Source of the DNA: a virus
Taxonomy: Duplodnaviria; Heunggongvirae; Uroviricota; Caudoviricetes
Length of the DNA: 46,724 nucleotides
IMG/VR virus record: IMGVR_UViG_2579778634_000020
Reading direction: 5' to 3' (one strand)
A model generated the notes under the pieces. It saw nothing but the letters and a program-made list of their open reading frames with translations. It ran no database searches and was not told where the DNA came from. Positions 24,900-45,488 of this stretch are shown piece by piece. The first letter of the stretch is position 1. Each line of letters starts with the position of its first letter. Position numbers and translations under genes: made by a program.

Positions 24900-25683
24900 A
24901 TTCCTCCTCCTCACCACCATGCATGATCTCCACCATGCGCTGCGTCATCCGGACAAATCCATTTTCAATAGCCTGCTGATAATCAATGATCACCAGCGCC
25001 GACTCCTCGAAAAAACACTGAATTTCAGCGGGGGCGTGAGCGTAATAGTCCGCAATTCTGCTGAAATTAAACACCGTGTGACGTTCTGCCGCACACAGGA
25101 GGAATTTCTCAATATCAGGCTCAAGAGACGCCGAACGTATCCGGCTGATCAGCTCCTGAGTTTTCGTATCGTCGTACAGTTCACTGATATCCGGTTTACC
25201 GCCCGACGGCTCATAAACAGGCGTATCAATTTTCGTCGTATACGGCTCCTCCTCATTTCCTGTACCGGGCAAAACATCCGTCAACAGTTCATCAATTTCT
25301 GTCGGGATGAAGCCTGTCAGGGAGACATCAAAATCAGCATTGATTAGGTCCGACAGCTCCATCCGCAACAGATCTTCATCCCAGCCAGCATTCATCGGCA
25401 GGCGATTATCTGCCAGGCGGTACGCCTTTTTCTGCTCATCCGTCAGGCCAGACAGAACAATGACCGGAACAGAATCCATTTTGAGCATTTCAGCCGCCAT
25501 AACACGACCGTGACCCGCAATAATTTCGCCCTTTTCGTCAATCAGCACCGGATTAGTCCAGCCGAATTGCTTAATACTTTCTACCAGTTGTGCCACCTGC
25601 TCAGTACTGTGCGTCCTGGCGTTGTGCGCATACGGTGACAATTCTTGTAATGGGCGATAGACTATCTTTAATTTCTCGCTCAT
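24892..25683 (-). CDS. ParB/Srx-like nuclease-domain protein (full-length ynaK-like)
   Basis: The N-terminus ..LSPYAHNARTHSTEQVAQLVESIKQFGWTNPVLID..IIAGHGRVMAA.. is a ParB N-terminal domain. No methylase motifs follow it. Confidence 0.8.
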   Translation of the reverse strand: MSEKLKIVYRPLQELSPYAHNARTHSTEQVAQLVESIKQFGWTNPVLIDEKGEIIAGHGRVMAAEMLKMDSVPVIVLSGLTDEQKKAYRLADNRLPMNAGWDEDLLRMELSDLINADFDVSLTGFIPTEIDELLTDVLPGTGNEEEPYTTKIDTPVYEPSGGKPDISELYDDTKTQELISRIRSASLEPDIEKFLLCAAERHTVFNFSRIADYYAHAPAEIQCFFEESALVIIDYQQAIENGFVRMTQRMVEIMHGGEEEEYA

Positions 25684-25699
25684 ACAGCCTTGCTTTATG

Positions 25700-25734
25700 A
25701 ATAAAACGCACCCCAGCAGCCAGTGCTACTGGGG
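25700..25734 (-). terminator. Terminator after trkG
   Basis: CCCCAG...CTGGGG hairpin (25711-25734), then TGCGTTTTATT on the minus strand. Confidence 0.6.
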
Positions 25735-25820
25735 ACGGAGGTATTGCTGGTAAAGTTAGGTATTGGATCAATGAGTGAGTCAACATAATATTAAACTCAC
25801 AATTATAAATCAGCCATATA

Positions 25821-27296
25821 TTAGGAGCGCCAAAAAAAACCTGAAAACAATATAATAACAGGATAAATTTCAAGGCGACCAAGAATCATAGCTATGCACA
25901 TTAAACATTTTGCAATGTCATTAAGCACTCCGAATGACGATGCAGTAGCCCCAAAACCTAATCCCATATTATTAATACATGCAGCCACTGTTGCAAATGA
26001 TGTAAGAAAATCATATCCCATACCATTTAACACCAGTATAAAAAACACCGTGAAGAGAGTATAAAGAAAAAAGAAACTCCATACAGACCTCATTACACGA
26101 TCTGTAACTATCTTCCCTCCTACATTTACACTCAACAACGCTCTGGGATGAGAAAGCTGATTTATCTCGTGTTTGCTTTGTTTGAAAAGTATAAGAAATC
26201 GAAGTGACTTAATTCCACCACAAGTTGAACCTATACATCCCCCAAAGAAACTTGACAACAGCAAAAACACTATCGTGTGCGTGGGCCAACTTGCATAATC
26301 CTGCGTAGCTAAACCATTATCAGTGAGCATGGAGCTGGCAAGAAAAAACGAATGAATAAAACTTCCATGCAAGTCATACATACCTATATGCCAGACCTGG
26401 AAAGAGGTAACAATGATCACCCCTAAGGCTATTAACAGAAAGAAACGAAGTTCAATATCTCTGATTAAAGGTTTTATCGTTTTCCTGCTAATAACAATAT
26501 ACCAAAGAGTGAAGTTGAAAGCCGATAGCAGGGAAAAAGAACCAGCCACCAGCTCAACCAAATAGTTATTAAAATATCCGATACTCTCGCTATGAGTTGA
26601 GAAACCACCAAGCGAAACTGTGGAAATCCCGTGACAAATAGCATCAAACAAAGGCATTCCTGCAAGTCTATAACAGACAATACAAGCAATACCTAATAAA
26701 GAATAAGTTATCCACAGTGTCCGTGACGTATCGGCCAGGCGGGGAGTGAGTTTGTCATCCTTAAATGGCCCCGGCATTTCTGACTGATAAAGCTTTGCAC
26801 CACCAATACCCAATAATGGCAATACAGCAACCGCCAGAACAATAACTCCTAAACCACCTATAAAATTTAACTGTGACCGATAGTACAAATATGCCCGAGG
26901 TAATGAACTAACATCATCAATTACAGTTGCTCCTGTTGTTGTTATTCCAGAAACCCCTTCAAACAGAGCATCAATGAACGTTAAATTAAGTTCTGAGTCA
27001 ATCCATAAAGGGAATGCACTAATAACAGAAAACAAAATCCAAAACATTACAATTATAATAAACCCATCACGGGTACGTAATTGAATGCCAGATTTCTTAG
27101 TTGTATACCACGCTCCGCCACCAATGCAAAAAAATATAACGAAAGTTATAAAGAAAACGAACAGGCTTTTTTCTTTATAAAACAATGCTACAACCATTGG
27201 TGGCAACATTGAAAGACTATAGAGCCAAACCAGGAACCCACACATATGAGTAACAACTCTTACATGAGATGTATTCATATCTAAATATTCTTTCAA
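25821..27296 (-). CDS. trkG: Trk-system K+ uptake membrane protein TrkG
   Basis: Near-identical to the remembered K-12 TrkG (MNTSHVRVVTHMCGFLVWLYSL..). The annotated-type ATG is at 27278. An upstream TTG at 27296 has a better SD (AGGTGG). Confidence 0.95.
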   Translation of the reverse strand: MKEYLDMNTSHVRVVTHMCGFLVWLYSLSMLPPMVVALFYKEKSLFVFFITFVIFFCIGGGAWYTTKKSGIQLRTRDGFIIIVMFWILFSVISAFPLWIDSELNLTFIDALFEGVSGITTTGATVIDDVSSLPRAYLYYRSQLNFIGGLGVIVLAVAVLPLLGIGGAKLYQSEMPGPFKDDKLTPRLADTSRTLWITYSLLGIACIVCYRLAGMPLFDAICHGISTVSLGGFSTHSESIGYFNNYLVELVAGSFSLLSAFNFTLWYIVISRKTIKPLIRDIELRFFLLIALGVIIVTSFQVWHIGMYDLHGSFIHSFFLASSMLTDNGLATQDYASWPTHTIVFLLLSSFFGGCIGSTCGGIKSLRFLILFKQSKHEINQLSHPRALLSVNVGGKIVTDRVMRSVWSFFFLYTLFTVFFILVLNGMGYDFLTSFATVAACINNMGLGFGATASSFGVLNDIAKCLMCIAMILGRLEIYPVIILFSGFFWRS

Positions 27297-27415
27297 TTAT
27301 AACCACCTTGCTGCAATATTATGATTATACTGTATAAAATTTAACTCCTCTTAGATCTTACTTCACTGTTCCTTATGAAACAATCATCAAAATGAATCAT
27401 ATTGTAGTTAAGATT

Positions 27416-27880
27416 TTACTTTAAACACTGCTCGGTTATGTATTGCTGAGCACCTTCAAGTTGGGCCTGCATCATTACCAGTCGTTCCCGCAGGGTGAAA
27501 TAATCCCGTTCAGCGGTGTCTGCCAGTCGGGGGGAGGCTGCATTATCCACGCCGGAGGCGGTGGTGGCTTCACGCACTGACTGACAGACTGCTTTGATGT
27601 GCAACCGACGACGACCAGCGGCAACATCATCACGCAGAGCATCATTTTCAGCTTTCGCATCAGCTAACTCCTTCGTGTATTTTGCATCGAGCGCAGCAAC
27701 ATCACGCTGACGCATCTGCATGTCAGTAATTGCCGCGTTCGCCAGCTTCAGTTCTCTGGCATTTTTGTCGCGCTGTTCTTTGTAGGCGATGGCGTTATCA
27801 CGGTAATGATTAACACCCCATGACAGGCAGACGACGATGCAGATAACCAGAGCGGAGATAATCGCGGTTACTCTGCTCAT
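27416..27880 (-). CDS. Spanin inner-membrane subunit Rz
   Basis: N-terminal TM segment and coiled coil. Follows the endolysin gene. Confidence 0.9.
27475..27660 (-). CDS. Spanin outer-membrane lipoprotein Rz1, embedded in Rz
   Basis: Lipobox LVVVGC and a Pro-rich mature part. Lies entirely within Rz in another frame. Confidence 0.85.
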
Positions 27881-28915: not shown

Positions 28916-29077
28916 ATGTCTGAAAAAAACAAACCACAAGGTGAAAATAAACCTCAGCACCCCGTGGCACCAAAACCAACTCCAACACAAAGTACTACAG
29001 ACTTTGCTACACGTCGTGTTTTTGTTGGAGATTCTGCCGACTCAGTCATTGAACATATAAAAAAACAGCCGAGATAA
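28916..29077 (+). CDS. Possible 53-aa Pro/Lys-rich protein, convergent with the moron
   Basis: AAGAGGA RBS 5 nt before the ATG. Translation is MSEKNKPQGENKPQHPVAPKPTPTQSTTDFATRRVFVGDSADSVIEHIKKQPR*. No clear promoter was found. Confidence 0.3.
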   Translation: MSEKNKPQGENKPQHPVAPKPTPTQSTTDFATRRVFVGDSADSVIEHIKKQPR

Positions 29078-29615
29078 ACATCGCCGCTACCGGAGCAAGG
29101 ATGGTATACATCCTTGCTTTATCGAGACTCGTGCGGATTTTCTCATTTTCCAACAGTAACTCTCTTGCTGTATCACTCAAGTCAACAAGGCGATACCTTC
29201 GTATAAGCGGCAATAACTTATCAGGTCCTAAATATCCTGCATCAGCGAATATTTTAAAGCTCGAGGGCTCCATATCCTTATATTTTTCATGATATAGATG
29301 ATCAGGAGGGGCATTGATCAGGCCCCTAACCTTCACAGATAAACCAGTACATACCAAGTAAATGGCGCACCATGTCCATAGTAATGTAAATGTGGTAATT
29401 CCGGCGGTGAGAAAATCGAAATTAGTTTTCTGTGTCAGCAATAAAAAAGATGAACCAATTCCAACAATCTGAATGTTCAGAAGTTTGTATCCATTCTCAA
29501 CATTGGTTTTGTTAGAAAGATGAATCTCTCGTATCGTCTCTTCCCCTTGTTTTTCAAGATAATCGACGAGCTCATCATCTACTCCTAAAAAATAATCTTT
29601 AGGTAGTTCTCTCAT
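29046..29615 (-). CDS. Unknown membrane protein (about 3 TM segments), a moron between tR' and the lysis cassette
   Basis: Strong RBS GGAGGTGAG. Hydrophobic segments are LLNIQIVGIGSSFLLL, FLTAGITTFTLLWTWCAIYLVCTGL and MYTILAPVAAMFISAVFLYV. The gene is visibly AT-rich. Confidence 0.75.
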   Translation of the reverse strand: MRELPKDYFLGVDDELVDYLEKQGEETIREIHLSNKTNVENGYKLLNIQIVGIGSSFLLLTQKTNFDFLTAGITTFTLLWTWCAIYLVCTGLSVKVRGLINAPPDHLYHEKYKDMEPSSFKIFADAGYLGPDKLLPLIRRYRLVDLSDTARELLLENEKIRTSLDKARMYTILAPVAAMFISAVFLYVQ

Positions 29616-29643
29616 CTCACCTCCACATCCTGTACTGAAAACA

Positions 29644-29652
29644 ATTTTACCA
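29644..29652 (-). promoter_or_regulatory. Candidate extended -10 promoter (TGGTAAAAT) for the moron
   Basis: Minus strand reads TGGTAAAAT about 25 nt upstream of the RBS. No good -35 element. Confidence 0.35.
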
Positions 29653-29721
29653 GAATGTCTCGATTCTAGGTATTCCGCCAGGAATCGCGCTCCAGAAATG
29701 AAACATCAGGTTCGCCAGTAC

Positions 29722-30379: not shown

Positions 30380-30666
30380 AAATAACCTTCCTTTCTCCAG
30401 ATTTCTTGTGTGCGAAAAACACCTTCTGCATGCATCAGGCGTAATTCTTCTTTGGTGTAATCGCTGGTTTTTACCCGCCCGTCGATTAAATCGTGGCATG
30501 AGCTACAGGCAATCGCTGCCTGCATATCGTGTGGTTTTGTCGCTGTTCCGCACGTCCCCGCCAGCCTGTAATGCGCCAGCACAGATGTTTCGGGATTGTG
30601 ATTGCAGTAGCCAGGAATTCTGACGGTGCACATCTGCCCCCGCGCCGCTTTACGTAAATCCACCAT
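30376..30666 (-). CDS. DUF1364 (YbcO-like) Cys/His-rich putative nuclease
   Basis: 96 aa with C..C...CxxCH pattern (..MCTVRIPGYCNHNP..IACSSCHDLIDG..). Sits in the nin region. Confidence 0.7.
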   Translation of the reverse strand: MVDLRKAARGQMCTVRIPGYCNHNPETSVLAHYRLAGTCGTATKPHDMQAAIACSSCHDLIDGRVKTSDYTKEELRLMHAEGVFRTQEIWRKEGYL

Positions 30667-31265
30667 TACGCAAACTCCAGCAGCTGCGCGGCCACATTTT
30701 CGACTTGTTCCGGAGAGGAAAATTTACGGAACAGAATCCAGTTCCACAGCACATTCAGAACAGATTTATAAACCTGCTGAAACTCGGTTTCGTCCATATT
30801 CGCAAAAGCGATAGATTTTGCCCGACGCCCGCGGCTACCGTCCTGATAAAAATGTTCGGTGTAAAATCCAGCCTGAATGGTTACCCACTCGCGAAAAGCC
30901 TCAAACGACTTTAGCAATGCCGTATCCCGGGTTCTGCGTGTCGCAACTGTATTCAGATATTGCTCTGCGGCATCACTCAGGGCTGGCGTGTGTTCCCGAC
31001 CAACTGATTCGCACAGGTAATCAACGAAACCAGACAGCAGTTCTCGTTCGCGAGGCGTGATCGCCCCACCGACCGGAGTCCAGTAATCGAATCCCAGTTG
31101 CAGGAGTTTGAAAAAACGCTTGTGGAATGCGTAGTTACGCACACGCTTAAAGTCTGCGTGTATCCACTCGCCTATTTTGATTTGATGCAGAAAATCACAA
31201 CTCTCCGGCGTCGCCGGGAGAAGTAATCCGGAAGAGGTTTGTTTGACCAGTTGTATATGCGCCAT
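30666..31265 (-). CDS. DUF1367 (YbcN/YdfU-like) nin-region protein
   Basis: 199 aa. N-terminus ..IHADFKRVRNYAFHKRFFKLLQLGFDYW.. as remembered for the family. Confidence 0.65.
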   Translation of the reverse strand: MAHIQLVKQTSSGLLLPATPESCDFLHQIKIGEWIHADFKRVRNYAFHKRFFKLLQLGFDYWTPVGGAITPRERELLSGFVDYLCESVGREHTPALSDAAEQYLNTVATRRTRDTALLKSFEAFREWVTIQAGFYTEHFYQDGSRGRRAKSIAFANMDETEFQQVYKSVLNVLWNWILFRKFSSPEQVENVAAQLLEFA

Positions 31266-31537
31266 TTCTTAATCTCTCGATGGCGCAGCGCAGCAGATGC
31301 CAGTTGTTCAGGCTGACGTATGAAGTATAAATAAACTGGCTCCAGTGTAAAGCCCCACCTTAATGGAATAAAAACCAAACAACAGATTGCTGGGATACAA
31401 ACAACGCTTATTATTAAAAGCGGTTAAACAAATTAAATTTTAATGTTATGCAAATCTGCCAGATCACCATAATATCTCATTTGAAAACCGCTGAAATAAC
31501 AACCCTATTAGGGTTAATCATATTAAGGTGAGTAAAT

Positions 31538-31624
31538 ATGGAAAACAACAAATCTGCACATTACGTTCCTTTTTTATCTGTAATACTTTTTGTTTTATGC
31601 TGTGCGTGGGCATTATTTTTATAA
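31538..31624 (+). CDS. Possible 28-aa hydrophobic peptide
   Basis: RBS AAGGTGAG. Translation is MENNKSAHYVPFLSVILFVLCCAWALFL*. Preceded by the palindrome AACCCTATTAGGGTT (31501-31515). Confidence 0.3.
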   Translation: MENNKSAHYVPFLSVILFVLCCAWALFL

Positions 31625-31635
31625 AAATATTCACA

Positions 31636-31672
31636 GATAAAATATACCCGCCAAAGTTGGTTAAGTGCGGGT
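31636..31672 (-). terminator. Terminator of the hok-like mRNA
   Basis: ACCCGC...GCGGGT hairpin, then ATATTTTAT on the minus strand. Confidence 0.6.
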
Positions 31673-31730
31673 GCGTTGAGGATGCCTGACTCATCAGAGG
31701 TGGCGAGGGATTTCTCCCTCGCCTGGTCTC

Positions 31731-31883
31731 TCACTCCTCAGGTTCGTAAGCTGTGAAGACAGCGACCTCCGTCTGACCGGTTCGGATTTGTACCTCGCAG
31801 AAGTCTTTCCTTGTTACCAGTGCCATCACAACGACGGTAATACAGATGACAATCAGGGCGGTTAACATCGTCTTTTGCTGCAT
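31731..31883 (-). CDS. Hok/Gef-family type I membrane toxin, 50 aa (below the ORF track's apparent ~60-aa minimum)
   Basis: Translation is MQQKTMLTALIVICITVVVMALVTRKDFCEVQIRTGQTEVAVFTAYEPEE*. It matches the Hok consensus (..LIVICxTxxxxxxLTRKxLCEVRIRxGxTEVAxFxAYE..). Confidence 0.9.
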   Translation of the reverse strand: MQQKTMLTALIVICITVVVMALVTRKDFCEVQIRTGQTEVAVFTAYEPEE

Positions 31884-31897
31884 CACAGCCTACTTAC

Positions 31898-31932
31898 CCT
31901 TACCTTTCGTTCAAGCGGTAAGGTCACTTTTT
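31898..31932 (+). ncRNA. Candidate 3' hairpin/terminator of a Sok-like antisense RNA
   Basis: CCTTACC/GGTAAGG (31898-31904 with 31917-31923), then TCACTTTTT. Lies antisense to the hok leader. Neither the promoter nor the 5' end was located. Confidence 0.35.
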
Positions 31933-32031
31933 CTGTTGTGTGCTAACCAACAAACCTCTTTTATCTGCATTAAAAATCGTTATCATGTCATCCTCAACCT
32001 GTTAATAGCCTATTATGGACTTTAGTAAACA

Positions 32032-33861
32032 ATGAGCACTTCCGCATACAAGAGCAAAATTCGAACACTCCAGTGCGCGTTAAAAAACGGTGAATTTGAA
32101 CCATTCATACAACATATCCGTTTTCCATACTTTAAAAATATAGAGCAGAATGCAAGGATCGATTTTCAGTTCCCTATAACGGCTTTAGTAGGAAAAAATG
32201 GAACTAATAAAAGTTCTGTTATCAAAGCGCTATTTGGTTGCCCACATGGTAAAAATATAACTCGTTATTGGTTCACAACTGAAACAGATGAGTTTCCTGA
32301 CCTAAAACTTGCTGATGGCAGTTCTCTTAAACCTAGATATATATATGGATATAAAAATGCTGATGGCCGTTTAGTTGAAATACTCCAAGCACGTATCAAT
32401 GCTACCAAGAAAACAATCGATTATTGGGAAACAAGTCGACCATCTGTTGGTGATAACATGGAGAGTATTTCGGATGATCTGGGTGCTAATAGTAATGCAA
32501 CCAGATGGAAAAAAATCAAGAAGGGATTGGTTTTCCTAGATTTCAGATCGGAAATAAGTGCATTTGATAGATGTATGTATCACTCTGATTTTAAATTAAG
32601 AAAGAAGAAGAGTGGTGTATTAATTACAAAGCAAGACTATATCAGAAGCAAATCTAAATATATAAAGAAAGCTTTTGATGAAAAGCTAAGTAATTTAAGA
32701 CTCTGGGGGGCGGAAACCATTGTTAAAAATATAACCTTGGCGCCAGAACTAGTTGAGCACGTCTCATTTATATTAGGGAAAAAATATAAAGTCATTAAAT
32801 TTCTTGAGCATCGGTTATTTGGAACCAGAGGAGGAACCGCTTTACTTTCAACTGATAAGTTGAACTATACAGAAGCGTTTGCTGGAAGTGGTGAATTTGC
32901 AATAGTTTCACTAATACTCAATATTTATTCGGCCAAACCTAATTCATTAATTCTTCTTGACGAACCAGAAGTTTCACTTCACCCTGGTGCACAAAAAAGG
33001 ATGATGGATGTTCTGTACTCTATTGTTGAGCAGAAAAAACATCAAGTGGTAATATCAACCCATTCTCCTGTTATTGTGAACACTCTTCCCAAAGATGCCA
33101 TTAAATTATTTGTTTTTGATGAAGAGAGTGAAACAGCTAAAATAGTTCAAAATATAGCACCGGATGAAGCTTTTATAGAGCTAGGGCATGATATTAACAA
33201 GAAAACAATAATTGTAGAAGATAAATTAGCTAAAGCAATTATAGATAAAGCGATTAAAAATGATGAAAGATTAAGCTTATCATTTAGTGTAAGTTATATA
33301 CCAGGTGGTTCGGAGACCATTTTAAGCAAGCATCTTCCCAGTTACGCTGTGGTAGAACGCAATGATATTTTGTTTTTACTTGATGGTGATAAAAACAAAA
33401 AAATAAAACCAGTAAGAATTAGTGAAATTGCTGATGCTGATTTAGTTAATACAATGTGCAAATATTATGGTTGCGAGTTAATTATCAATGCCAGTGGTAG
33501 TAATGGCAAAAAAAATGAACAAGAATCTAATAGACTCAAAAGGCAAGTGCTTGAGTATGCATTCAATAAAGTGCAGTATTTACCATTTGATACTCCCGAA
33601 CAATTACTCATTGAAAAGGCAATTACGCCAAGTGAAAAAGAAATAATTGATTCACAGACCTGGAGTTCTAATGATCCAGAACTGTATAAGAATCAAATAA
33701 GATTATTAGCGCAACACCTGTATGATAAAGAAGAAGTAAATGCAGAGGAAATTTTTTGCCTCCAACAAATGATGACCGCAAGACTTAAAAATGAATTGCC
33801 TGAATTTATAAAAATAAGAAAAATAATTACTCAGGCTCTTGACCGTGGTATCATTAGGTAG
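32032..33861 (+). CDS. ABC-type (AAA_15/21-like) ATPase fused to a C-terminal Toprim/DUF4435-like region; OLD/PARIS-like architecture
   Basis: Walker A GKNGTNKS (aa 54-61), signature-like AGSGE (aa 284-288), Walker B LILLDE (aa 306-311), H-loop STHSP (aa 342-346). C-terminal IIVED (aa 393-397), PGGSE (aa 424-428) and LLDGDKN (aa 449-455) resemble the Toprim E..DxD pattern. Confidence 0.8.
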   Translation: MSTSAYKSKIRTLQCALKNGEFEPFIQHIRFPYFKNIEQNARIDFQFPITALVGKNGTNKSSVIKALFGCPHGKNITRYWFTTETDEFPDLKLADGSSLKPRYIYGYKNADGRLVEILQARINATKKTIDYWETSRPSVGDNMESISDDLGANSNATRWKKIKKGLVFLDFRSEISAFDRCMYHSDFKLRKKKSGVLITKQDYIRSKSKYIKKAFDEKLSNLRLWGAETIVKNITLAPELVEHVSFILGKKYKVIKFLEHRLFGTRGGTALLSTDKLNYTEAFAGSGEFAIVSLILNIYSAKPNSLILLDEPEVSLHPGAQKRMMDVLYSIVEQKKHQVVISTHSPVIVNTLPKDAIKLFVFDEESETAKIVQNIAPDEAFIELGHDINKKTIIVEDKLAKAIIDKAIKNDERLSLSFSVSYIPGGSETILSKHLPSYAVVERNDILFLLDGDKNKKIKPVRISEIADADLVNTMCKYYGCELIINASGSNGKKNEQESNRLKRQVLEYAFNKVQYLPFDTPEQLLIEKAITPSEKEIIDSQTWSSNDPELYKNQIRLLAQHLYDKEEVNAEEIFCLQQMMTARLKNELPEFIKIRKIITQALDRGIIR

Positions 33862-33884
33862 TGATTCTGGATGCAGAGGGAAAA

Positions 33885-34925
33885 ATGAAAAAAATCAAAG
33901 TGTTTGACTTCTTTTCCGGTTGTGGTGGAACCAGCCAAGGTTTCCATCAAGCTGGAATGGATATTGTTTTTGGCCTCGATTTCGACGTTGATGCAGCCAG
34001 TTCATTTCGTGCAAATTTCCCGCAGGCTGCTTTTATTAACTCGGACATTAGGTTAATCGACAACAATGCCATAAACAAGTTAGTAAAAAAACATCGTAAT
34101 GATTACATTCTTTTTTCAGGATGTGCGCCTTGTCAACCGTACTCTAAGCAAAACTCAAATAAGAAAAATGATGATCCACGATTAGATCTATTAAAGGAAT
34201 TCAGTCGCTTTGTAGAGCATTATATGCCTGATTTTATTTTTGTTGAAAACGTGCCAGGAATGCAAAAGTTTAACAAAAATGAAGGAACATTCATGATGTT
34301 TTTAGAAATGCTTTCATCAAAGGGATATAGTGTAGATTATAAAGTAATGCCAGCTGCGTGGTACGGTGTACCACAGACGCGAGAAAGATTAGTGCTCATT
34401 GCATCCAAGGATTTTTATGTCGCATTGCCTTCTCCTACACATGGGGTTGGAAATACTCCCTATTCAACAGTAAAGGACTGGATCGCTAATTTACCGAAGA
34501 TAGAAGCAGGAGAAAAGCATAATAGTATTCCTGATCATGAAGCTGCACGCTTATCAGAGCTTAATTTACGTAGAATAAAATGCACTCCTGAAGGTGGAAG
34601 TCGAGAATTTTGGCCAGATGAATTGATTTTAGAATGCCATCGTAACCATAAAGGGCATACAGACGTATATGGACGTTTGAGTTGGGACAAACCAGCCAGC
34701 GGACTAACAACTCGTTGTATTAGCTATTCAAATGGACGTTTTGGACATCCAACACAAAATCGAGCAATATCGGTTCGTGAAGCAGCGTGTCTACAAACAT
34801 TTCCTTTGGATTATAAATTTATTGGTTCTTTGCAATCTCGGGCTCGTCAAATAGGAAATGCGGTCCCTCCGAAGATGTCTGAAACGATTGGAAAACATTT
34901 GCTTAATATAATCAAAGCCTCCTAG
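33885..34925 (+). CDS. DNA (cytosine-5) methyltransferase
   Basis: All conserved motifs are present: I DFFSGCGG, IV GCAPCQPYS, VI FVENVPG, VIII QTRERL, IX SVREAACLQTFP, X GNAVPP. ATG at 33885 follows GAGGG. The ORF track starts it at GTG 33861. Confidence 0.95.
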   Translation: MKKIKVFDFFSGCGGTSQGFHQAGMDIVFGLDFDVDAASSFRANFPQAAFINSDIRLIDNNAINKLVKKHRNDYILFSGCAPCQPYSKQNSNKKNDDPRLDLLKEFSRFVEHYMPDFIFVENVPGMQKFNKNEGTFMMFLEMLSSKGYSVDYKVMPAAWYGVPQTRERLVLIASKDFYVALPSPTHGVGNTPYSTVKDWIANLPKIEAGEKHNSIPDHEAARLSELNLRRIKCTPEGGSREFWPDELILECHRNHKGHTDVYGRLSWDKPASGLTTRCISYSNGRFGHPTQNRAISVREAACLQTFPLDYKFIGSLQSRARQIGNAVPPKMSETIGKHLLNIIKAS

Positions 34926-34940
34926 GAGGCTTTATTTTAT
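34914..34940. terminator. Bidirectional terminator closing the cassette
   Basis: GCCTCC TA GGAGGC (34917-34930), flanked by an A-run upstream and TTTATTTTAT downstream. The MTase stop codon lies in the loop. Confidence 0.7.
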
Positions 34941-34958
34941 TGTTATCCCCCCTAGTAG

Positions 34959-35390
34959 TTAATCGTGCTCACCAGACAACCTCCTGAAATTACTCTGGTA
35001 AAATGCCAGTACACGCTGCATAACTTCGCTTTTCCGGCACTCGCGACAGATTATATTCAGGCGCCTGTCGTAGCGGCGTATTTCTCCGTCTGGTAATGAC
35101 CAGATAAGGTCAGGATCAACCACAACCGTTTTTTTCACCTTTGCCCTGGATAGTTTTTTGCGGGCGTTTTGCCAGTCCTTACGAGCCTGCTCAGACGGGA
35201 ATAATCCGTAGCCTGAATTGTAAACATCACCACTGGCGACCAGTTCTCTGGCGAGAGTGCTTATGTAATACCTTGATGCACCGGTTTTAGCCTCCAGAGC
35301 CCGTAACGTCTCGCGACCGCTCAGACGTACAAGTTCAACAACCTGCCCTTTAATTTTTTCCCGCTCTTCTGGTGTAAATACTTTTGCCAT
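34959..35390 (-). CDS. Hypothetical phage protein with a putative HTH, 143 aa
   Basis: RBS GGAGG before MAKVFTPEERE... Positioned after the replication module. Confidence 0.7.
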   Translation of the reverse strand: MAKVFTPEEREKIKGQVVELVRLSGRETLRALEAKTGASRYYISTLARELVASGDVYNSGYGLFPSEQARKDWQNARKKLSRAKVKKTVVVDPDLIWSLPDGEIRRYDRRLNIICRECRKSEVMQRVLAFYQSNFRRLSGEHD

Positions 35391-35405: not shown

Positions 35406-36167
35406 TCACTTTTCCGACACAATACGACTGGAGGAATCGAAAATCTGTCGAACAATATCCCGGTGCTTGTTCAGCTCCCGCAGCGCGGCGCAGACTCGCT
35501 CCCACTTCTGGACATGATTTTTCGCCCGACGCAGTTCACGGTTTGCCATATGCAGCGATGGTAAAATCAGGTTATCCGCTTGCGTTTCAGTAAACGATGG
35601 CAACGACTGCACAATGTCCGCCACAGTTTCTGTTTTAATATCTTCCTGTGTTGCAGCTTCCTGTACTGGTAACGCAACACCGGCTAGCTGAGGAAAGGCT
35701 TTACCATCTGTTTCCGCTACCGATGCAGCTTTCGGCTCTGCTGGTAAATTACCGCCCGGCATGCAGTAACGAAATTTACCGTTCTGATTAACGCGAATCA
35801 GACGAGCTTTGCTGATTGCCATTGCCAGCGTTGAAGCCACTTTGCGGGATGTGGTACCGAACACCGTAGCCAGTTCATCCGCAGTTAGTGGACCACGTTG
35901 TTCAATCGTCGCAGTTAAATCGCTCTCTGAAATTTTCGCGACTGTTGCCGTGGTAGTTTCTTCCGGCAGTTCTGCCGGCGCTGGCTGTTCCTGCTGAACG
36001 TTGTTATCAGCCACACGCCAGGTGTACGCGCTTTTATCAACGAAACCAGCCTTTTTCAGTTCCCATAGTTCGTTCAGCACTTCTTCACGGCTGATATCAA
36101 GTCGCGCAGCAAGTTCTATGGATGTGGCTTTTCCCATTGCTTTCAGTGCGTCAAAAACAGTCTCCAT
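35406..36167 (-). CDS. Hypothetical protein with two winged-helix-like modules (DUF1627-like)
   Basis: RBS GGGAGA before [23 protein letters not shown]... A second similar module is ..[32 protein letters not shown]... Confidence 0.7.
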
Positions 36168-38561: not shown

Positions 38562-38981
38562 ATGGTTCATGAAGATAAAGCGCGTAAAGAGTTCGCCAGT
38601 AGGCTTGCGCTAGCCTGTGAAAACGCTGGTTATGAACAACATGGAAGGCAGGCAGAAATTGCCCGTCGAATGAAATTAACACCAAAAGCGGTTAGCAAAT
38701 GGTTTAATGGTGAAACAATTCCTCGCCGAGAGAAATTAAGGGAATTAGCAACACTCATTGGAACAACACCAACCTATCTTTTGGGAGAGGATACAGAAGA
38801 AAGTGGACAGATACGTTTCTATCAGGAGTTAAATCCAAGACAAAAAATCATCATTGACCTTCTGGACGAGCTCCCTGACAGTGAGACAGATGAACTTTTA
38901 AAAACTCTTGAGGAGAAAAAACAGAAGTACAATGCAATTTACGAAGAGTTAGCACGAAAGAAAAAACAAAAAGCCTCTTAA
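38562..38981 (+). CDS. Prophage repressor (XRE-family HTH, CI analogue)
   Basis: HTH ..GRQAEIARRMKLTPKAVSKWFNGETIP... Divergent from the cro-like gene. No SD upstream. Confidence 0.8.
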   Translation: MVHEDKARKEFASRLALACENAGYEQHGRQAEIARRMKLTPKAVSKWFNGETIPRREKLRELATLIGTTPTYLLGEDTEESGQIRFYQELNPRQKIIIDLLDELPDSETDELLKTLEEKKQKYNAIYEELARKKKQKAS

Positions 38982-39056
38982 ACCAGCATAAATCCGGTAG
39001 CGTCCCCCTCCGGGTTTGTGCTTCACTTTATCCCGTCTCATTTTTTTATACATAAA

Positions 39057-39101
39057 ATGTACTTAAAGTACTTTACAATGATGAACACAAAGTACATTAT
39101 A
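39057..39101 (+). promoter_or_regulatory. OL/pL-like region: a 17-bp near-palindrome and a further AGTACAT motif bracketing a promoter
   Basis: ATGTACTTAAAGTACTT (39057-39073) and AGTACAT (39091-39097). Promoter elements: TTTACA (39072-77), 17-18 nt spacer, CATTAT/ATTATA (39095-39101). Confidence 0.5.
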
Positions 39102-39268
39102 TACCTACCAACCCACCCCGCCCCACAGAACGCCGGGCAATACTTCGAGTTACCAGGCAGTGGTCAGGGGTTAAGTAGCCAGCCCGAGGCGTATGAACAT
39201 GACGGCGGGATTCAAATTTTGCAGTGCAGCAGTTAGTTCCGCCACCCGGCGTTAAGGGGATAGATAAG

Positions 39269-39403
39269 ATGGTGCATTACGAAGTAGTTCAGTATTTGAT
39301 GGATTGTTGCGGTATCACTTACAACCAGGCTGTGCAGGCTTTACGCAGCAACGACTGGGATCTCTGGCAGGCAGAAGTCGCTATACGTAGCAACAAGATG
39401 TGA
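39269..39403 (+). CDS. ydaG: YdaG, 44 aa
   Basis: MVHYEVVQYLMDCCGITYNQAVQALRSNDWDLWQAEVAIRSNKM*. Same position as in K-12 Rac, between the repressor and sieB. Confidence 0.75.
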   Translation: MVHYEVVQYLMDCCGITYNQAVQALRSNDWDLWQAEVAIRSNKM

Positions 39404-39413
39404 GATTCGCAAA

Positions 39414-39569
39414 ATGCAAAAAATCGACCTCGGCAACAACGAATCCCTGGTGTGCGGCGTGTTCCCCAACCAGGATGGAACGTTCACTGCCATGACGTAT
39501 ACCAAAAGCAAAACATTTAAAACCGAAACTGGTGCGCGCCGATGGTTGGAGAAGCACACAGTAAGCTAA
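39414..39569 (+). CDS. ydaF: YdaF, 51 aa
   Basis: MQKIDLGNNESLVCGVFPNQDGTFTAMTYTKSKTFKTETGARRWLEKHTVS*. Its end overlaps the sieB stop by 4 nt. Confidence 0.75.
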   Translation: MQKIDLGNNESLVCGVFPNQDGTFTAMTYTKSKTFKTETGARRWLEKHTVS

Positions 39570-40054
39570 CGATTAAAACGTCTACTCCTGCTGTTCCAGA
39601 ATAACTTCATAAAATGGGAGTATTTTTCGGTGACGAGATAATAAGAACAGTTTGCGCTATCACTCTGATGTTGAATGATGCCCTTCCGTTCTAATTTTTT
39701 CATAACCGGGTTACGGCAAGGAGAAGTGATAATAAGATTTCCTGTTTTAAGGAAATCTTTAAATACAGCGATTTCTTTCTCAGATAAACGAAGCAATACT
39801 CGTTGCTCTGGTAGTAATGAATAATGCTTTTGAATATGTGCTCGCAATCTTGAGAAGGAAATGGCGACCACGAAAGAAAAGGCAAAAACGATAATCTGAA
39901 AGAGCCAAGGTATTTCAGTATAAGCATTGAATGCGACAGTAAACTCTTTCGGTATCAGCCAGAGAGTGAGACCAAAAATGATAATCGTATACATAAGTCT
40001 TTCGAGTGGCTCGTTAGCAAAAAGTTTCAACAATGGAGTAAATACATCCAACAT
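39566..40054 (-). CDS. sieB: Superinfection exclusion protein B
   Basis: 162 aa from MLDVFTPLLKLFANEPLE.LMYTIIIFGLTLWLIPKEF.. matches the remembered K-12 SieB. The ORF on the track extends 41 codons further upstream. Confidence 0.9.
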   Translation of the reverse strand: MLDVFTPLLKLFANEPLERLMYTIIIFGLTLWLIPKEFTVAFNAYTEIPWLFQIIVFAFSFVVAISFSRLRAHIQKHYSLLPEQRVLLRLSEKEIAVFKDFLKTGNLIITSPCRNPVMKKLERKGIIQHQSDSANCSYYLVTEKYSHFMKLFWNSRSRRFNR

Positions 40055-40272
40055 ATCAATAACTCTCAACTGTAAGGGTATTGAAATGTTAACACAAGCT
40101 CTCGCTGTAGGGGTATAGCCGAGACCACCGAAGCCCGGAGGTGGTGAAATAAAACCGGGCACAACACGAAGGCGCATTTCCGATATCCATAAAGAGTCGG
40201 TCTTGTCTGTTAAATTTAAATGGTGGGAGTGCGCCTCCGGTTGTAAATAACGACATTGCTGTGTGTAGTCCT

Positions 40273-40320
40273 GGCGGCATCAGTTTTTTTCTTGAAGTTC
40301 GGCTGATGTCCGCCCTTTTT
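40273..40320 (+). terminator. Intrinsic terminator in the early-left transcript upstream of kilR
   Basis: GGCGGCATCAG (40273-83) pairs with CTGATGTCCGCC (40303-14, one bulge), then CTTTTT. Confidence 0.6.
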
Positions 40321-40495
40321 AAAGTGAATTTTGTGATGCGGTGAATGCGGCTAAGCGCACGTGGCACAGTTAAAAGTCATGTTAGTCCTTATTGGTTTGG
40401 GTGGGAAAGCCGACTGTAATTGTTAACTGGTTGCAGTCACCTGGAGGCACCAGGCACCGCATCAACAAAGTTCATTTGTAAAAATGGAGATAATT

Positions 40496-40717
40496 ATGAT
40501 TGCACATCACTTCGGAACTGATGAAATACCACGTCAGTGTGTGACTCCTGGCGATTATGTTCTTCATGAAGGCCGGACATATATTGCCTCGGCAAACAAT
40601 ATTAAAAAGCGAAAACTATATATTCGTAACCTGACCACAAAAACATGCATTACTGACCGCATGATTAAAGTCTTCCTCGGTCGTGATGGTTTACCTGTAA
40701 AGGCGGAGTCATGGTGA
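40496..40717 (+). CDS. kilR: KilR, inhibitor of FtsZ/cell division
   Basis: [73 protein letters not shown] matches the remembered KilR. RBS GGAGA. Confidence 0.9.
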
Positions 40718-40887
40718 TGACTAAGAAAATAAAATGTGCTTACCACCTTTGCAAAAAAGACGTTGAAGAAAGCAAAGCTATTGAAAGAATGCTTCACTTC
40801 ATGCACGGGATTTTATCAAAAGACGAACCGAGAAAATATTGCAGTGAAGCTTGTGCCGAAAAAGACCAGATGGCACATGAACTTTAA
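40717..40887 (+). CDS. ydaE: YdaE, 56 aa Cys-containing protein
   Basis: [56 protein letters not shown]. The start overlaps the kilR stop. An alternative ATG lies at 40711. Confidence 0.75.
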   Translation: MTKKIKCAYHLCKKDVEESKAIERMLHFMHGILSKDEPRKYCSEACAEKDQMAHEL

Positions 40888-40961
40888 TTAATTGACTATT
40901 CGAAACTGAATTTATGCCAGAAATGGCAGGTATTCGCTCAACCTTAATTAAGGAGAAAAAC

Positions 40962-41237
40962 ATGATTACCAATTATGAAGCCACTGTTGTAACTACCGAT
41001 GACATTGTTCACGAGGTGAATCTGGAAGGAAAGCGCATTGGCTACGTAATTAAAACAGAAAATAAAGAAACCCCATTCACTGTGGTTGATATCGATGGTC
41101 CATCAGGCAACGTAAAAACACTTGATGAAGGTGTCAAAAAAATGTGCCTGGTGCATATCGGAAAGAATCTGCCCACAGAAAAAAAAGCCGAATTTCTGGC
41201 AACTCTAATTGCAATGAAATTAAAAGGTGAAATCTGA
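40962..41237 (+). CDS. racC: RacC
   Basis: MITNYEATVVTTDDIVHEVNLEGKRIGYVIKTENKETPFTVVDIDG.. matches the remembered RacC. RBS AAGGAG. Confidence 0.9.
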   Translation: MITNYEATVVTTDDIVHEVNLEGKRIGYVIKTENKETPFTVVDIDGPSGNVKTLDEGVKKMCLVHIGKNLPTEKKAEFLATLIAMKLKGEI

Positions 41238-41242
41238 AAGAA

Positions 41243-41267
41243 ATAGCCTGCGTATGGCGCAGGCTAT
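41243..41267. other. Perfect 10-bp stem-loop between racC and recE
   Basis: ATAGCCTGCG (41243-52) pairs with CGCAGGCTAT (41258-67). No plus-strand U-tract. TTTCTTTC follows on the minus strand. Confidence 0.6.
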
Positions 41268-41338
41268 GAACAGTGTGTATCCGGCAAGATCATTCACTGA
41301 ACAAAACGAATTTTAATCTGAGTTGAGGTTAAAAAACA

Positions 41339-43939
41339 ATGAGCACAAAACCACTCTTCCTGTTACGGAAAGCGAAAAAATCATCCGGTGAACCTGACGT
41401 CGTCCTGTGGGCAAGCAACGATTTTGAATCGACCTGTGCCACTCTGGACTACCTGATCGTTAAGTCAGGTAAAAAACTGAGCAGCTATTTTAAAGCTGTT
41501 GCCACGAATTTTCCTGTCGTTAATGACCTGCCCGCTGAAGGTGAGATCGATTTTACCTGGAGTGAACGCTATCAACTCAGCAAAGACTCCATGACATGGG
41601 AACTAAAACCGGGAGCAGCACCAGACAACGCTCACTATCAAGGCAATACCAACGTCAACGGCGAAGACATGACTGAGATTGAGGAGAATATGCTACTCCC
41701 AATTTCTGGCCAGGAACTGCCCATTCGTTGGCTTGCTCAACACGGCAGCGAAAAACCGGTAACGCACGTTTCACGCGACGGACTCCAGGCATTACACATT
41801 GCTCGGGCTGAAGAACTACCGGCTGTTACTGCCCTGGCTGTTTCCCACAAAACCAGCCTGCTCGACCCGCTGGAAATTCGCGAACTCCACAAACTGGTTC
41901 GTGACACTGACAAAGTTTTCCCTAATCCTGGTAATTCAAACCTGGGACTGATAACTGCTTTTTTCGAAGCATACCTGAACGCTGACTACACCGATCGAGG
42001 ACTGCTGACAAAAGAGTGGATGAAGGGTAATCGTGTTTCACACATCACTCGCACGGCTTCCGGTGCTAATGCTGGCGGCGGAAACCTCACCGATCGCGGC
42101 GAAGGTTTCGTACACGATCTGACGTCACTGGCGCGCGACGTAGCCACTGGCGTACTGGCCCGTTCAATGGATCTGGACATCTATAACCTTCATCCGGCAC
42201 ACGCTAAACGCATTGAGGAAATTATCGCTGAAAATAAACCGCCCTTTTCTGTTTTCCGCGACAAATTCATCACCATGCCTGGCGGGCTGGATTATTCCCG
42301 CGCCATCGTGGTTGCGTCCGTAAAAGAAGCACCAATTGGGATCGAGGTCATCCCCGCGCACGTCACTGAATATCTGAACAAAGTACTGACTGAAACCGAT
42401 CATGCCAACCCTGATCCGGAAATCGTGGATATTGCCTGCGGTCGCTCCTCTGCCCCGATGCCGCAGCGAGTAACAGAAGAAGGAAAACAGGATGATGAAG
42501 AAAAACCGCAACCATCTGGAACAACGGCAGTTGAACAGGGAGAGGCTGAAACAATGGAACCGGACGCAACTGAACATCATCAGGACACGCAGCCGCTGGA
42601 TGCTCAGTCACAGGTAAATTCTGTTGATGCGAAATATCAGGAACTGCGGGCAGAACTCCATGAAGCCCGGAAAAACATTCCATCAAAAAATCCTGTCGAT
42701 GCCGATAAATTGCTTGCTGCATCACGTGGTGAATTTGTTGACGGAATTAGCGACCCGAACGATCCGAAATGGGTAAAGGGGATCCAGACTCGCGATTGTG
42801 TGTACCAGAACCAGCCAGAAACGGAAAAAACCAGCCCGGATATGAATCAACCTGAGCCAGTAGTGCAACAGGAACCGGAAATAGCCTGCAATGCCTGCGG
42901 CCAGACTGGCGGGGATAACTGCCCTGACTGTGGTGCGGTGATGGGCGACGCAACATACCAGGAAACATTCGATGAAGAGAGTCAGGTTGAAGCTAAGGAA
43001 AATGATCCGGAGGAAATGGAAGGCGCTGAACATCCGCACAATGAGAATGCTGGCAGCGATCCGCATCGCGATTGCAGTGATGAAACTGGCGAAGTCGCAG
43101 ATCCCGTAATCGTAGAAGACATAGAGCCAGGTATTTATTACGGAATTTCGAATGAGAATTACCACGCGGGTCCCGGTGTCAGTAAGTCTCAGCTCGATGA
43201 CATTGCTGATACTCCGGCACTGTATTTGTGGCGTAAAAATGCCCCCGTGGACACCACAAAGACAAAAACGCTCGATTTAGGAACCGCTTTCCACTGCCGG
43301 GTACTTGAGCCGGAAGAATTCAGTAACCGCTTTATCGTAGCACCTGAATTTAACCGCCGGACAAACTCCGGAAAAGAAGAAGAGAAAGCGTTTCTGAGGG
43401 AATGCGCAAGCACAGGAAAAACGGTTATCACTGCCGAAGAAGGCCGGAAAATTGAACTCATGTATCAGAGCGTTATGGCTTTGCCGCTGGGGCAATGGCT
43501 TGTTAAAAGCGCCGGACACGCTGAATCATCAATTTACTGGGAAGATCCTGAAACAGCAATTTTGTGTCGGTGCCGTCCGGACAAAATTATCCCTGAATTT
43601 CACTGGATCATGGACGTGAAAACTACGGCGGATATTCAACGATTCAAAACCGCTTATTACGACTACCGCTATCACGTTCAGGATGCATTCTACAGTGACG
43701 GTTATGAAGCACAGTTTGGAGTGCAGCCAACTTTCGTTTTTCTGGTTGCCAGCACAACTATTGAATGCGGACGTTATCCGGTTGAAATTTTCATGATGGG
43801 CGAAGAAGCAAAACTGGCAGGTCAGCTGGAATATCACCGCAATCTGCGAACCCTGGCTGACTGCCTCAATACCGATGAATGGCCAGCTATTAAGACGTTA
43901 TCAGTGCCCCGCTGGGCTAAGGAATATGCAAATGACTAA
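41339..43939 (+). CDS. recE: Exodeoxyribonuclease VIII (RecE), full length
   Basis: 866 aa. The C-terminal nuclease region and overall sequence match the remembered RecE. Confidence 0.95.
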
Positions 43940-44741
43940 GCAACCACCAATCGCAAAAGCCGATCTGCAAAAAACTCAGGGAAACCGTGCACCAGCAGCA
44001 ATTAAAAATAACGACGTGATTAGTTTTATTAACCAGCCATCAATGAAAGAGCAACTGGCAGCAGCTCTTCCACGCCATATGACGGCTGAACGTATGATCC
44101 GTATCGCCACCACAGAAATTCGTAAAGTTCCGGCGTTAGGAAACTGTGACACTATGAGTTTTGTCAGTGCAATCGTACAGTGTTCACAGCTCGGACTTGA
44201 GCCCGGTAGCGCCCTCGGTCATGCATATTTACTGCCTTTTGGTAATAAAAACGAAAAGAGCGGTAAAAAAAACGTTCAGCTAATCATTGGCTATCGCGGC
44301 ATGATTGATCTGGCTCGCCGTTCAGGTCAAATCGCCAGCTTGTCAGCCCGTGTTGTCCGTGAAGGTGACGAGTTTAATTTCGAATTTGGCCTTGATGAAA
44401 AGTTAATACACCGCCCAGGAGAAAACGAAGATGCCCCTGTTACCCACGTCTATGCTGTCGCAAGACTGAAAGACGGAGGTACTCAGTTTGAAGTTATGAC
44501 GCGCAAACAGATTGAGCTGGTGCGCAGCCAGAGTAAAGCTGGTAATAACGGGCCGTGGGTAACTCACTGGGAAGAAATGGCAAAGAAAACGGCTATTCGT
44601 CGCCTGTTCAAATATCTGCCCGTATCAATTGAGATCCAGCGTGCAGTATCAATGGATGAAAAGGAACCACTGACAATCGATCCTGCAGATTCCTCTGTAT
44701 TAACCGGGGAATACAGTGTAATCGATAATTCAGAGGAATAA
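43932..44741 (+). CDS. recT: RecT single-strand annealing protein
   Basis: [23 protein letters not shown].. gives 269 aa. The start overlaps the recE stop by 8 nt. Confidence 0.95.
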
Positions 44742-44796
44742 TTCAGCCTGGCGGTGTAATGCACCGCCAACTTGAAATATTTTTATGAGAAAAATT

Positions 44797-44991
44797 ATGA
44801 GATATGACAATGTTAAACCATGTCCATTTTGTGGTTGTCCATCAGTAACGGTGAAAGACATTTCAGGATATTACCGGGCAAAATGCAACGGATGCGAATC
44901 CCGAACTGGCTATGGTGGAAGTGAAAAAGAAGCGCTCGAAAGATGGAATAAACGAACCACTGAAAATATTAATGGAGGCGTTCATGTATAA
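44797..44991 (+). CDS. ralR: RalR/Lar: restriction-alleviation protein and type I toxin (DNase)
   Basis: MRYDNVKPCPFCGCPSVTVK.ISGYYRAKCNGCESRTGYGGSEKEALERWNKRTT.. matches the remembered 64-aa RalR. Confidence 0.9.
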   Translation: MRYDNVKPCPFCGCPSVTVKDISGYYRAKCNGCESRTGYGGSEKEALERWNKRTTENINGGVHV

Positions 44992-45172: not shown

Positions 45173-45204
45173 ATTGCATTGTATTCAAATTAAAACTTCA
45201 TAGC

Positions 45205-45220
45205 TGATTATTAATAATCA
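45205..45220. repeat. 16-bp perfect palindrome TGATTATTAATAATCA upstream of xis
   Basis: Read directly from the sequence. Confidence 0.85.
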
Positions 45221-45271
45221 ACATCAGGCGTCAATTTCAGTCTAACATTGGCGCCTGCCAGAGGTGATGCG

Positions 45272-45487: not shown

Positions 45488-45488
45488 T

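Follow-up and report, generated by a model that had tools for sequence, protein, structure and literature searches.

The 46,724-nt stretch of caudoviricete DNA analysed here (IMG/VR record IMGVR_UViG_2579778634_000020; 'the window' below) belongs to a prophage of the Rac type, and at positions 31266–34950, between a DUF1367 gene and a DUF977 gene, it carries two plus-strand genes that we predict to encode a nuclease of the OLD family, with ABC-ATPase and Toprim domains in one polypeptide, and a 5-methylcytosine (m5C) DNA methyltransferase (MTase). Our principal finding is that these two genes, rather than being separate acquisitions, appear to form a single conserved module, and that this module is very probably defence cargo in a prophage hotspot. 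The best overall explanation, which we regard as reasonably probable, joins four elements: a variable slot, a two-gene operon inserted in it, a neighbouring hok gene that lost its front end when the cargo arrived, and protection of the lysogen by a nuclease whose action is gated by methylation.

The view that the interval is a recombination-exchanged slot of Rac-type and lambdoid prophages, lying between the replication end (DnaC-like, DUF1627 and DUF977 genes) and the hok–DUF1367–YbcO–Q-like nin module, is strongly supported by comparison of related loci. We assembled 80 viral-contig loci with a DUF1367 protein 96–99 % identical to that of the window and placed the replication-side anchors by tblastn; both anchors were present in 59 loci, and when the intervening DNA was clustered at 85 % reciprocal coverage these fell into 43 content clusters with slot lengths of 1.7–5.3 kb. 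In every cluster the slot was more AT-rich than its flanks (G+C fraction 0.35–0.47 versus about 0.50). By simple count, at least 12 of the 43 clusters, roughly a third, have a representative that matched PADLOC defence models, several of them over the full length. The known systems include IetA/IetS (1e-143 and 1e-301, full length, and likewise present in the isolated phage vB_EcoS-683R6), Menshen NsnABC (full-length PADLOC match), RosmerTA RmrA (near full length), Tmn, a PARIS-like AriA/AriB pair (locus L047), and a type II restriction–modification (RM) system composed of a C5-MTase and a GHKL-type restriction endonuclease (REase_II). A Stk2/PD-T4-6-like kinase with a PP2C gene, a SIR2/ThsA-like gene with deaminase-like and HAM1-like genes, AbiLi-like, PD-Lambda-2_C and BstA-like proteins, and NACHT and STAND nucleoside triphosphatases are also found. 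The slot therefore shows both marks of a hotspot of the P2/P4 style, namely conserved flanks around highly diverse content and the presence of known anti-phage systems in the cargo.

Not all of the content is of this kind. QueH is the commonest variant, and DUF1971 and small phage-type open reading frames (ORFs) are also found. At least eight multi-gene cargos (L009, L011, L013/L020/L040, L031, L033, L042, L057 and L062) have no PADLOC match, and Pfam gave no or weak matches for those of L009, L011, L013, L031 and L057; a pair of genes encoding proteins of 310 and 184 aa recurs in three different slot variants (L013, L020 and L040). We regard these PADLOC-negative multi-gene cargos as candidate new defence systems.

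The cargo of the window itself is rare at this site. Among the slot loci it was found in L008, L010 and, truncated, L017 only, and while the DUF1367 anchor is present in 1,329 of 5,426 complete Escherichia coli genomes, the cargo (31915–34950) is present in 32, as a single copy that is at least 99.3 % identical in all of them. All 32 genomes span the full 3,685-nt query at ≥99 % identity and thus share the same junction, which fits a single acquisition event. The cargo also occupies the identical slot in prophages that differ in their replication and lysis modules (O103 RM8385 and EC11), and it therefore moves together with its flanks by recombination. One of its carriers is the Rac prophage of E. 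coli ATCC 8739, which is integrated at ttcA, carries recET, kilR, ralR, intR and trkG, and contains the 3.7-kb interval at 99.9 % identity. The assignment of the window to the Rac type is supported by an Rfam match to the RalA antitoxin RNA at 44990–45168 on the minus strand (218 bits), the sole match at the gathering threshold in a scan of the whole window; the RalR/RalA type I toxin–antitoxin (TA) system of Rac lies at 44785–45168.

The limits of the cargo were defined by comparing the window with a representative from every other content cluster (n=42). Sequence up to about 31250 was matched in all 42 variants, 31300–31645 in 24–25, 31646–31909 in 32–34, and about 31915–34950 in none. On the right side, homology restarts at 34950–35008 in 29 variants, at 35073 in two, and at 35449–35452 in nine, these being the variants that lack DUF977. 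Left breakpoints cluster at 31909–31913 in 32 of the 42 variants, about 25 nt upstream of the hok start codon, with secondary breakpoints at 31288/31330 and 31625/31646. Because of these left breakpoints and the absence of any match inside, the variant-specific cargo is limited to about 31910–34960 (3.05 kb), and the hok and small-ORF region to its left is semi-conserved backbone.

Base composition follows the same limits. The G+C fraction is 0.369 for 31266–34950 and 0.359 for the core at 31910–34960, as against 0.467 and 0.501 in the left and right 3-kb flanks and 0.471 in the whole window; in a sliding scan the DUF1367 gene and the right flank are near 0.50, while the interval lies at 0.31–0.41, after which values return to 0.49–0.53. 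The core is the lowest-G+C 3-kb stretch of the window, equally low values being found in 1.1 % of segments of the same size, all of which overlap it. Further AT-rich segments of the window lie at 25601–27600 (the trkG region), 38601–41400 and 44601–46200.

These results bear out the central proposal of a first-pass annotation of the window, made from its letters and predicted ORFs, which had seen in this interval a variable hotspot that collects defence genes, had judged it AT-rich by eye and had expected other Rac-like prophages to carry different cargo at the same junctions. The content of the slot is clearly neither uniform nor free of a compositional shift. The genes that had been listed are all present and the flanking DUF1367 and 143-aa (DUF977) genes are indeed on the minus strand. 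The layout with cargo on the opposite strand holds for the nuclease–MTase module, which was consistently so oriented in the E. coli prophage contexts seen, but it is not a general property of the slot, since only about 14 of the 43 variants show it.

The same annotation had read the hok gene, a small ORF, an ATPase gene and an MTase gene as independently collected cargo, with hok as a working addiction locus, and there is some evidence on its side. The Hok ORF (51 aa, 31731–31886, minus strand; PF01848, 1.8e-21) is intact and matches Pfam strongly, and the stem-loop at the 3′ end is kept (−24 kcal/mol). The coding sequence and 3′ end are thus where they had been placed, within a segment at 31646–31909 (minus strand), but what normally precedes them is gone. 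A region of about 170 nt upstream of hok is conserved in 45 of 53 loci and is replaced by unrelated AT-rich sequence in the window, L008, L010 and L017. In a canonical locus (L027) this region holds sok, directly upstream of hok (RF01794, 119.6 bits against a gathering score of 59), and the start of a 70-aa Mok–Hok ORF. In the window no Rfam match to sok was found at E ≤ 1 between 31000 and 35200, and no ORF of at least 30 aa overlaps hok upstream as mok would; the context of the hok start codon has changed from AGGAGAAGCAGGCT-ATG to AGGGTAAGTAGGCT-GTG. The one weak Rfam match in the interval, to CRISPR-DR57 (E 0.32), was put down to chance. Translation of hok depends on mok, and with the mok leader replaced the simplest reading is that the hok of the window, devoid of promoter, 5′ leader, mok and sok, is a silent remnant made when the cargo was acquired.

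The small ORF is likewise part of the backbone. It lies within an AT-rich, mosaic and semi-conserved sub-module (31266–31645) and comprises 28 codons (31538–31624, plus strand; MENNKSAHYVPFLSVILFVLCCAWALFL) preceded at 7 nt by a strong Shine–Dalgarno sequence, AAGGTGAG. The ORF, which is unannotated, is intact in 48 of 48 related copies, whose nine protein variants keep a polar head and a hydrophobic tail, and the exact peptide is absent from a collection of 15 billion proteins. Judged by these features it looks like a gene for a small membrane peptide, or a type I toxin-like gene, beside hok. As the hok and small-ORF region is common to 24–34 of the 42 other variants, and as the sok/mok leader of most other loci has been replaced here, independent collection of all four genes around a functional hok is very improbable.

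The first gene of the module (32032–33861, plus strand) encodes a protein of 609 aa that had been named simply as an ATPase. The ATPase domain is certainly present (Pfam AAA_21, AAA_15 and SMC_N), yet this name is incomplete, as motifs and predicted fold identify the protein as an ABC-ATPase–Toprim nuclease of the OLD family. Its best PADLOC match is HEC-04 (1.7e-34, 117 bits), which covers residues 232–459 of the protein and positions 160–383 of the 494 in the model; the model of the retron I-B ATPase–Toprim protein (ATPase-Toprim_I-B) matches residues 41–464, and weaker matches include AriA, PtuA, NsnB, Old and GajA, those to Old and GajA spanning only about 55–70 residues. No restriction endonuclease model is among the best 25 of its 140 PADLOC matches. 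In two alignments of full-length homologues (A1, n=20; A2, n=74), 37–83 % identical to the window protein, the predicted functional residues are invariant throughout: G54, N56, G57, N59, K60 and S62 of Walker A; A284–E288 (AGSGE), D310–E313 (DEPE) and H344 of the ABC domain; and E396–D397, G426, D451 and D453 of the Toprim domain. T58, S61, F289, P424 and G452 are invariant in A1 only, P424 and G452 being nearly so in A2. The N-terminal domain thus has the Walker A, signature, Walker B and H-loop motifs of an ABC-type ATPase, and the C-terminal domain has the conserved glutamate and the metal-binding DxD motif of Toprim. The best sequence match in the PDB is the Thermus OLD nuclease (6P74), with similarity confined to the Walker B region (27–28 bits). 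An AlphaFold2 (AF2) model of the protein (mean predicted local distance difference test score, pLDDT, 87) has as its top Foldseek matches TsOLD (6P74) and Gabija GajA, both full length over about 640 aligned columns at a probability of 1.00, with template modelling (TM) scores of only 0.33–0.38 because the domains are arranged differently. The family is sizeable: 569 of 1.84 billion representatives of clusters at 50 % identity match at E ≤ 1e-30, and the best 150 of these are mostly full-length proteins of about 600 aa with a few shorter fragments.

The second gene (33885–34925, plus strand; alternative GTG start at 33861) encodes a putative m5C DNA MTase of 346 aa. PF00145 matches over the full length (5e-61), TIGR00675 also matches, and the PADLOC MTase_II model matches at 1e-96; motifs FxGxG, PCQ (IV), ENV (VI), QxRxR, RE and GNAVP are all present, covering motifs I, IV, VI, VIII, IX and X, so that the catalytic motif set expected of a type II RM methyltransferase is complete. 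Two other identities were considered and rejected. The protein is not Dcm, as it scores 39.6 against a PRK10458 cutoff of 710, and a Dnmt2-like tRNA methylase guarding tRNA from a Toprim tRNase is at odds with its bacterial DNA m5C motifs and with the Vsr genes found at two divergent loci. Among solved structures, the MTase is matched best in sequence by eukaryotic DNMT1 catalytic domains (E about 1e-38), far better than by the bacterial M.HaeIII or M.HhaI (1e-20 to 1e-14).

The association of the two genes extends well beyond E. coli. A scan of genome contigs with the nuclease alone gave one locus, in Pantoea, as the single-protein pattern reaches close relatives only, and the wider set of contexts amounts to 14 with the window counted; a C5-MTase gene stands beside the nuclease homologue in all 14 and directly downstream in 13. 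In Pantoea the nuclease is 63 % identical and the pair lies beside ttcA and an integrase gene. A second E. coli variant (L084–L087, nuclease 39 % identical) and a third (L103) reside in other lambdoid prophages between Q and the holin or lysis genes, where Stx phages carry stx; both are, again, oriented antisense to the genes of the phage. A Pseudomonas prophage has the pair directly downstream of a cI-like repressor gene on the same strand, and further copies are found in Yersinia, in Bradyrhizobium, in the plain chromosome of Microbulbifer, in a Tolumonas prophage, and in metagenomic chromosomes and islands (including L101). The exception is the divergent context L100, in which about 1 kb separates the nuclease gene from an MTase gene on the opposite strand. 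In the six pairs measured the intergenic distance is −4 to +25 nt. The two proteins diverge in a correlated manner (r = 0.86), and the MTases are much better conserved (58–72 % identity) than the nucleases (37–63 %). Four of the five other pairs measured are AT-rich (G+C 0.34–0.38, with host flanks at 0.46–0.53), and the Bradyrhizobium pair has 0.53 against a flank of 0.57.

On this evidence we conclude that what had been taken for two separate cargo genes is one conserved module, predicted to be transcribed from the plus strand as a single operon with a hairpin terminator of its own. The presumed operon promoter would lie in the cargo-specific segment at 31910–32031 (plus strand), which stands in place of the hok/mok/sok leader, is matched in none of the 42 variants and recurs among the slot loci only in L008, L010 and L017. 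The MTase and DUF977 genes converge on the terminator, a perfect palindrome at 34914–34933, AAAGCCTC-CTAG-GAGGCTTT, with an 8-bp stem and a 4-nt loop and a folding energy of −12.9 (plus strand) or −12.6 kcal/mol (minus strand). The first-pass description of this hairpin, with the MTase TAG stop codon (34923–34925) inside its loop, was accurate; it has a good U-tract on the plus strand only, the minus-strand tract being weak. No noncoding conservation upstream or downstream of the module was detectable among the E. coli, Pantoea and Yersinia copies.

The main alternative at this point is that the two genes have independent functions and merely travel together, as an OLD-like abortive-infection sensor or effector and an orphan phage MTase with an anti-restriction or epigenetic role. 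The single-gene ATPase–TOPRIM proteins HEC-04 and P2 Old defend alone, and orphan MTases are frequent in lambdoid prophages, a Dam gene being present in L084 and L086; the conserved specificity of the MTase would also suit a generic protective mark. Furthermore, the one homologue found in a plasmid collection, a distant protein (30 % identical) on a Clostridium plasmid, has no MTase gene beside it, and the nuclease–MTase linkage therefore defines a sub-clade. Within that clade, however, no intact nuclease was seen without its MTase, the linkage is strict and extends to chromosomal sites outside phages, at which there would be little point in anti-restriction, and the tight or overlapping spacing of the genes and their correlated divergence are not what independent passengers would be expected to show. 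We therefore consider this alternative unlikely, though it is the most serious competitor of a joint function.

If the two proteins act together, an RM-like logic, in which the MTase marks self and the nuclease acts on unmarked DNA, suggests itself, and we judge the case for it to be evenly balanced. Vsr repairs T:G mismatches arising from deamination of 5-methylcytosine. Vsr genes adjoin two divergent members of the family (L100, 4748–5158; L101, 2530–2952), which argues that these MTases methylate the resident genome. In strain EC11 (L093, 5115–6945) the nuclease gene is split by a frameshift into two coding sequences while the adjacent MTase gene is identical and intact.

Our working hypothesis, then, is that the neighbouring backbone hok lost its promoter and its mok and sok leader when the cargo was acquired, and that the module has a promoter of its own from which, in the lysogen, it would be transcribed antisense to the early operon of the phage. 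The MTase would mark host and prophage DNA at a fixed motif, and the nuclease would act on meeting DNA without this mark, either by cutting it directly in the manner of a restriction enzyme or through a less discriminate abortive response; the net effect would be a lysogen protected from incoming phages. What the analysis establishes directly are the identities of the genes, their catalytic motifs, the fold, the strict linkage, the variability of the slot and the truncation of hok; expression in the lysogen, discrimination of self from non-self by methylation and the anti-phage function itself are inferred.

Several observations weigh against this hypothesis. We know of no characterised OLD- or PARIS-type Toprim effector that reads methylation. 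The target-recognition region of the MTase is highly conserved across the family (58–72 % identity), and a conserved specificity speaks against RM-like logic because classical RM systems diversify theirs. The asymmetry of decay comes from a single genome, EC11 having the only decayed copy among the 32, and the second E. coli variant, intact in all eight genomes compared, adds nothing on this point. The nuclease gene is not preceded by any strong sigma-70 consensus; matches in a promoter scan were no more numerous than expected from shuffled sequence, and none made a convincing promoter for the operon. A search of 50,697 deposited phage genomes gave no full-length homologue of the nuclease, which is odd for a prophage-borne module of which three variants occur in lambdoid prophages of E. 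coli; the matches in that collection are short Walker B stretches only, e.g. in lambda Ea59. Finally, the triggers described for Toprim effectors of the OLD and PARIS type are phage proteins or DNA-damage signals, and some of these effectors cut tRNA and not DNA (PMC11464382; bioRxiv 10.64898/2026.07.10.737580).

A linked nuclease and MTase may also serve a different end. RM systems are known to act as addiction modules, and the pair could be mainly such a module, its loss diluting methylation until residual nuclease kills the cell, with defence secondary or absent. The near identity of the cargo in all 32 genomes and the fact that the sole decayed copy lost the nuclease and not the MTase are compatible with this, and the neighbouring backbone normally has hok/sok, so stabilisation functions are evidently favoured at the site. 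However, addiction does not preclude defence, the other cargos of the slot are overwhelmingly anti-phage systems, and the same module is also found in stable chromosomal sites. An essentially addictive role thus seems improbable to us.

The remaining features of the region can be stated briefly. The left anchor of the slot, the DUF1367 gene of the nin module (30666–31265, minus strand; PF07105, 1e-96), is kept in all 42 other variants. The right anchor is the DUF977 gene (34959–35390, minus strand; PF06163, 5e-27), which is absent from nine of the 42, where DUF1627 serves as the anchor; beyond DUF977 follow DUF1627 and then the DnaC-like gene, both on the minus strand. A second variable slot lies between the Q-like antiterminator gene (DUF1133) and the lysis genes. 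In the window it holds, at 29046–29615 on the minus strand within an AT-rich stretch (29101–29700), an ORF of 189 aa with predicted membrane segments, and no Pfam, PADLOC or NCBIfam match. The slot has no tRNA genes in the window, and in ATCC 8739 and phage vB_EcoS-683R6 the corresponding position is occupied by tRNA-Gly and tRNA-Thr genes.

The slot between DUF977/DUF1627 and hok–DUF1367 is well delimited and highly diverse; roughly one complete E. coli genome in four has it, and it could be mined for new defence systems in the way that the P2/P4 hotspots have been. If methylation does gate the nuclease, the module would be the first case in the OLD family of an explicit partner that marks self, and would bear on how OLD- and PARIS-like ABC sensors separate self from non-self. 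There is also a practical aspect for strain engineering, as ATCC 8739 and other laboratory and industrial strains carry the module, which could restrict incoming DNA.

Comparison with known systems places the module close to several of them and within none. The hok locus, to begin with the neighbouring gene, resembles hok/sok type I TA loci in its coding sequence and 3′ terminal stem-loop, and differs from them in lacking the hok promoter, 5′ leader, mok and sok. The nuclease belongs to the OLD family by its predicted defining features: TsOLD (6P74, Class 1) and GajA (Class 2) are its best full-length structural matches, and P2 Old is, like it, the product of a prophage-borne gene. OLD nucleases have been divided into those encoded by a single gene (Class 1), those with a UvrD-like helicase partner (Class 2) and those with a retron reverse transcriptase partner (Class 3) (PMC10568477; PMC6755086). 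The window nuclease appears to fall outside all three. Instead of standing as an isolated gene it has a conserved MTase partner in all contexts of its clade, in contrast to Class 1; the gene downstream is a C5-MTase and no UvrD/PcrA-like helicase (GajB) was seen in the 14 contexts, in contrast to Class 2 (Gabija); and the partner is a C5-MTase rather than a retron reverse transcriptase, in contrast to Class 3.

HEC-04, a single-gene ABC ATPase–TOPRIM protein that has been shown experimentally to be defensive and is found inside the methylase-containing system Hma (Payne et al., 2024; bioRxiv 10.1101/2024.01.29.577857), is the best PADLOC match and shares the fused architecture. The match to the model is only partial, however, and HEC-04 acts alone whereas the window nuclease has an MTase neighbour. 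PARIS (AriA with AriB) and AbiL/Rlo-type pairs follow a related ABC-ATPase-plus-Toprim logic and often reside in prophage or satellite hotspots, and in L047 a PARIS-like pair is itself the cargo of the slot. PARIS responds to anti-restriction proteins by cleaving tRNA (PMC11464382). In the window protein the two domains are fused and the partner is an MTase, matches to AriA are partial, and there is no AriB (DUF4435 Toprim) gene. Type II RM systems with an m5C MTase, some of which include Vsr, offer a further parallel, for here too a nuclease is tightly linked to an MTase with an occasional Vsr gene, the module is mobile and AT-rich in most contexts, and one copy has lost the nuclease and kept the MTase. 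The difference lies in the predicted nuclease, which is of the ATP-dependent ABC–Toprim type and not of the PD-(D/E)xK, HNH, GIY-YIG or PLD type, with no restriction endonuclease of a recognised family among its 25 best PADLOC matches, and in an MTase specificity that seems fixed across the family.

In full, the pair matches no system of PADLOC 2.0, and in the literature that we searched we found no description of an OLD nuclease paired with a C5-MTase, although an earlier computational account is possible, or of the Rac/lambdoid slot. Defence hotspots of P2 prophages and P4 satellites are an established concept (Rousset et al., 2022; PMC9122126), and the slot described here is like them in having conserved flanking core genes, diverse, AT-rich and mostly defensive cargo, and exchange by recombination; it is unlike them in belonging to Rac-type and lambdoid elements, in lying at the junction of the replication and nin modules, and in also accommodating QueH and small phage genes. 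We propose, tentatively, that the pair represents a distinct form of methylation-dependent immunity, in which an OLD-family restriction or abortive effector is combined with a dedicated m5C MTase of fixed specificity as the mark of self. It might be counted either as a new class of OLD system or as a new type of RM system with a Toprim nuclease, and in either case would comprise hundreds of clusters in Proteobacteria and recur in prophage slots that are expressed in the lysogen.

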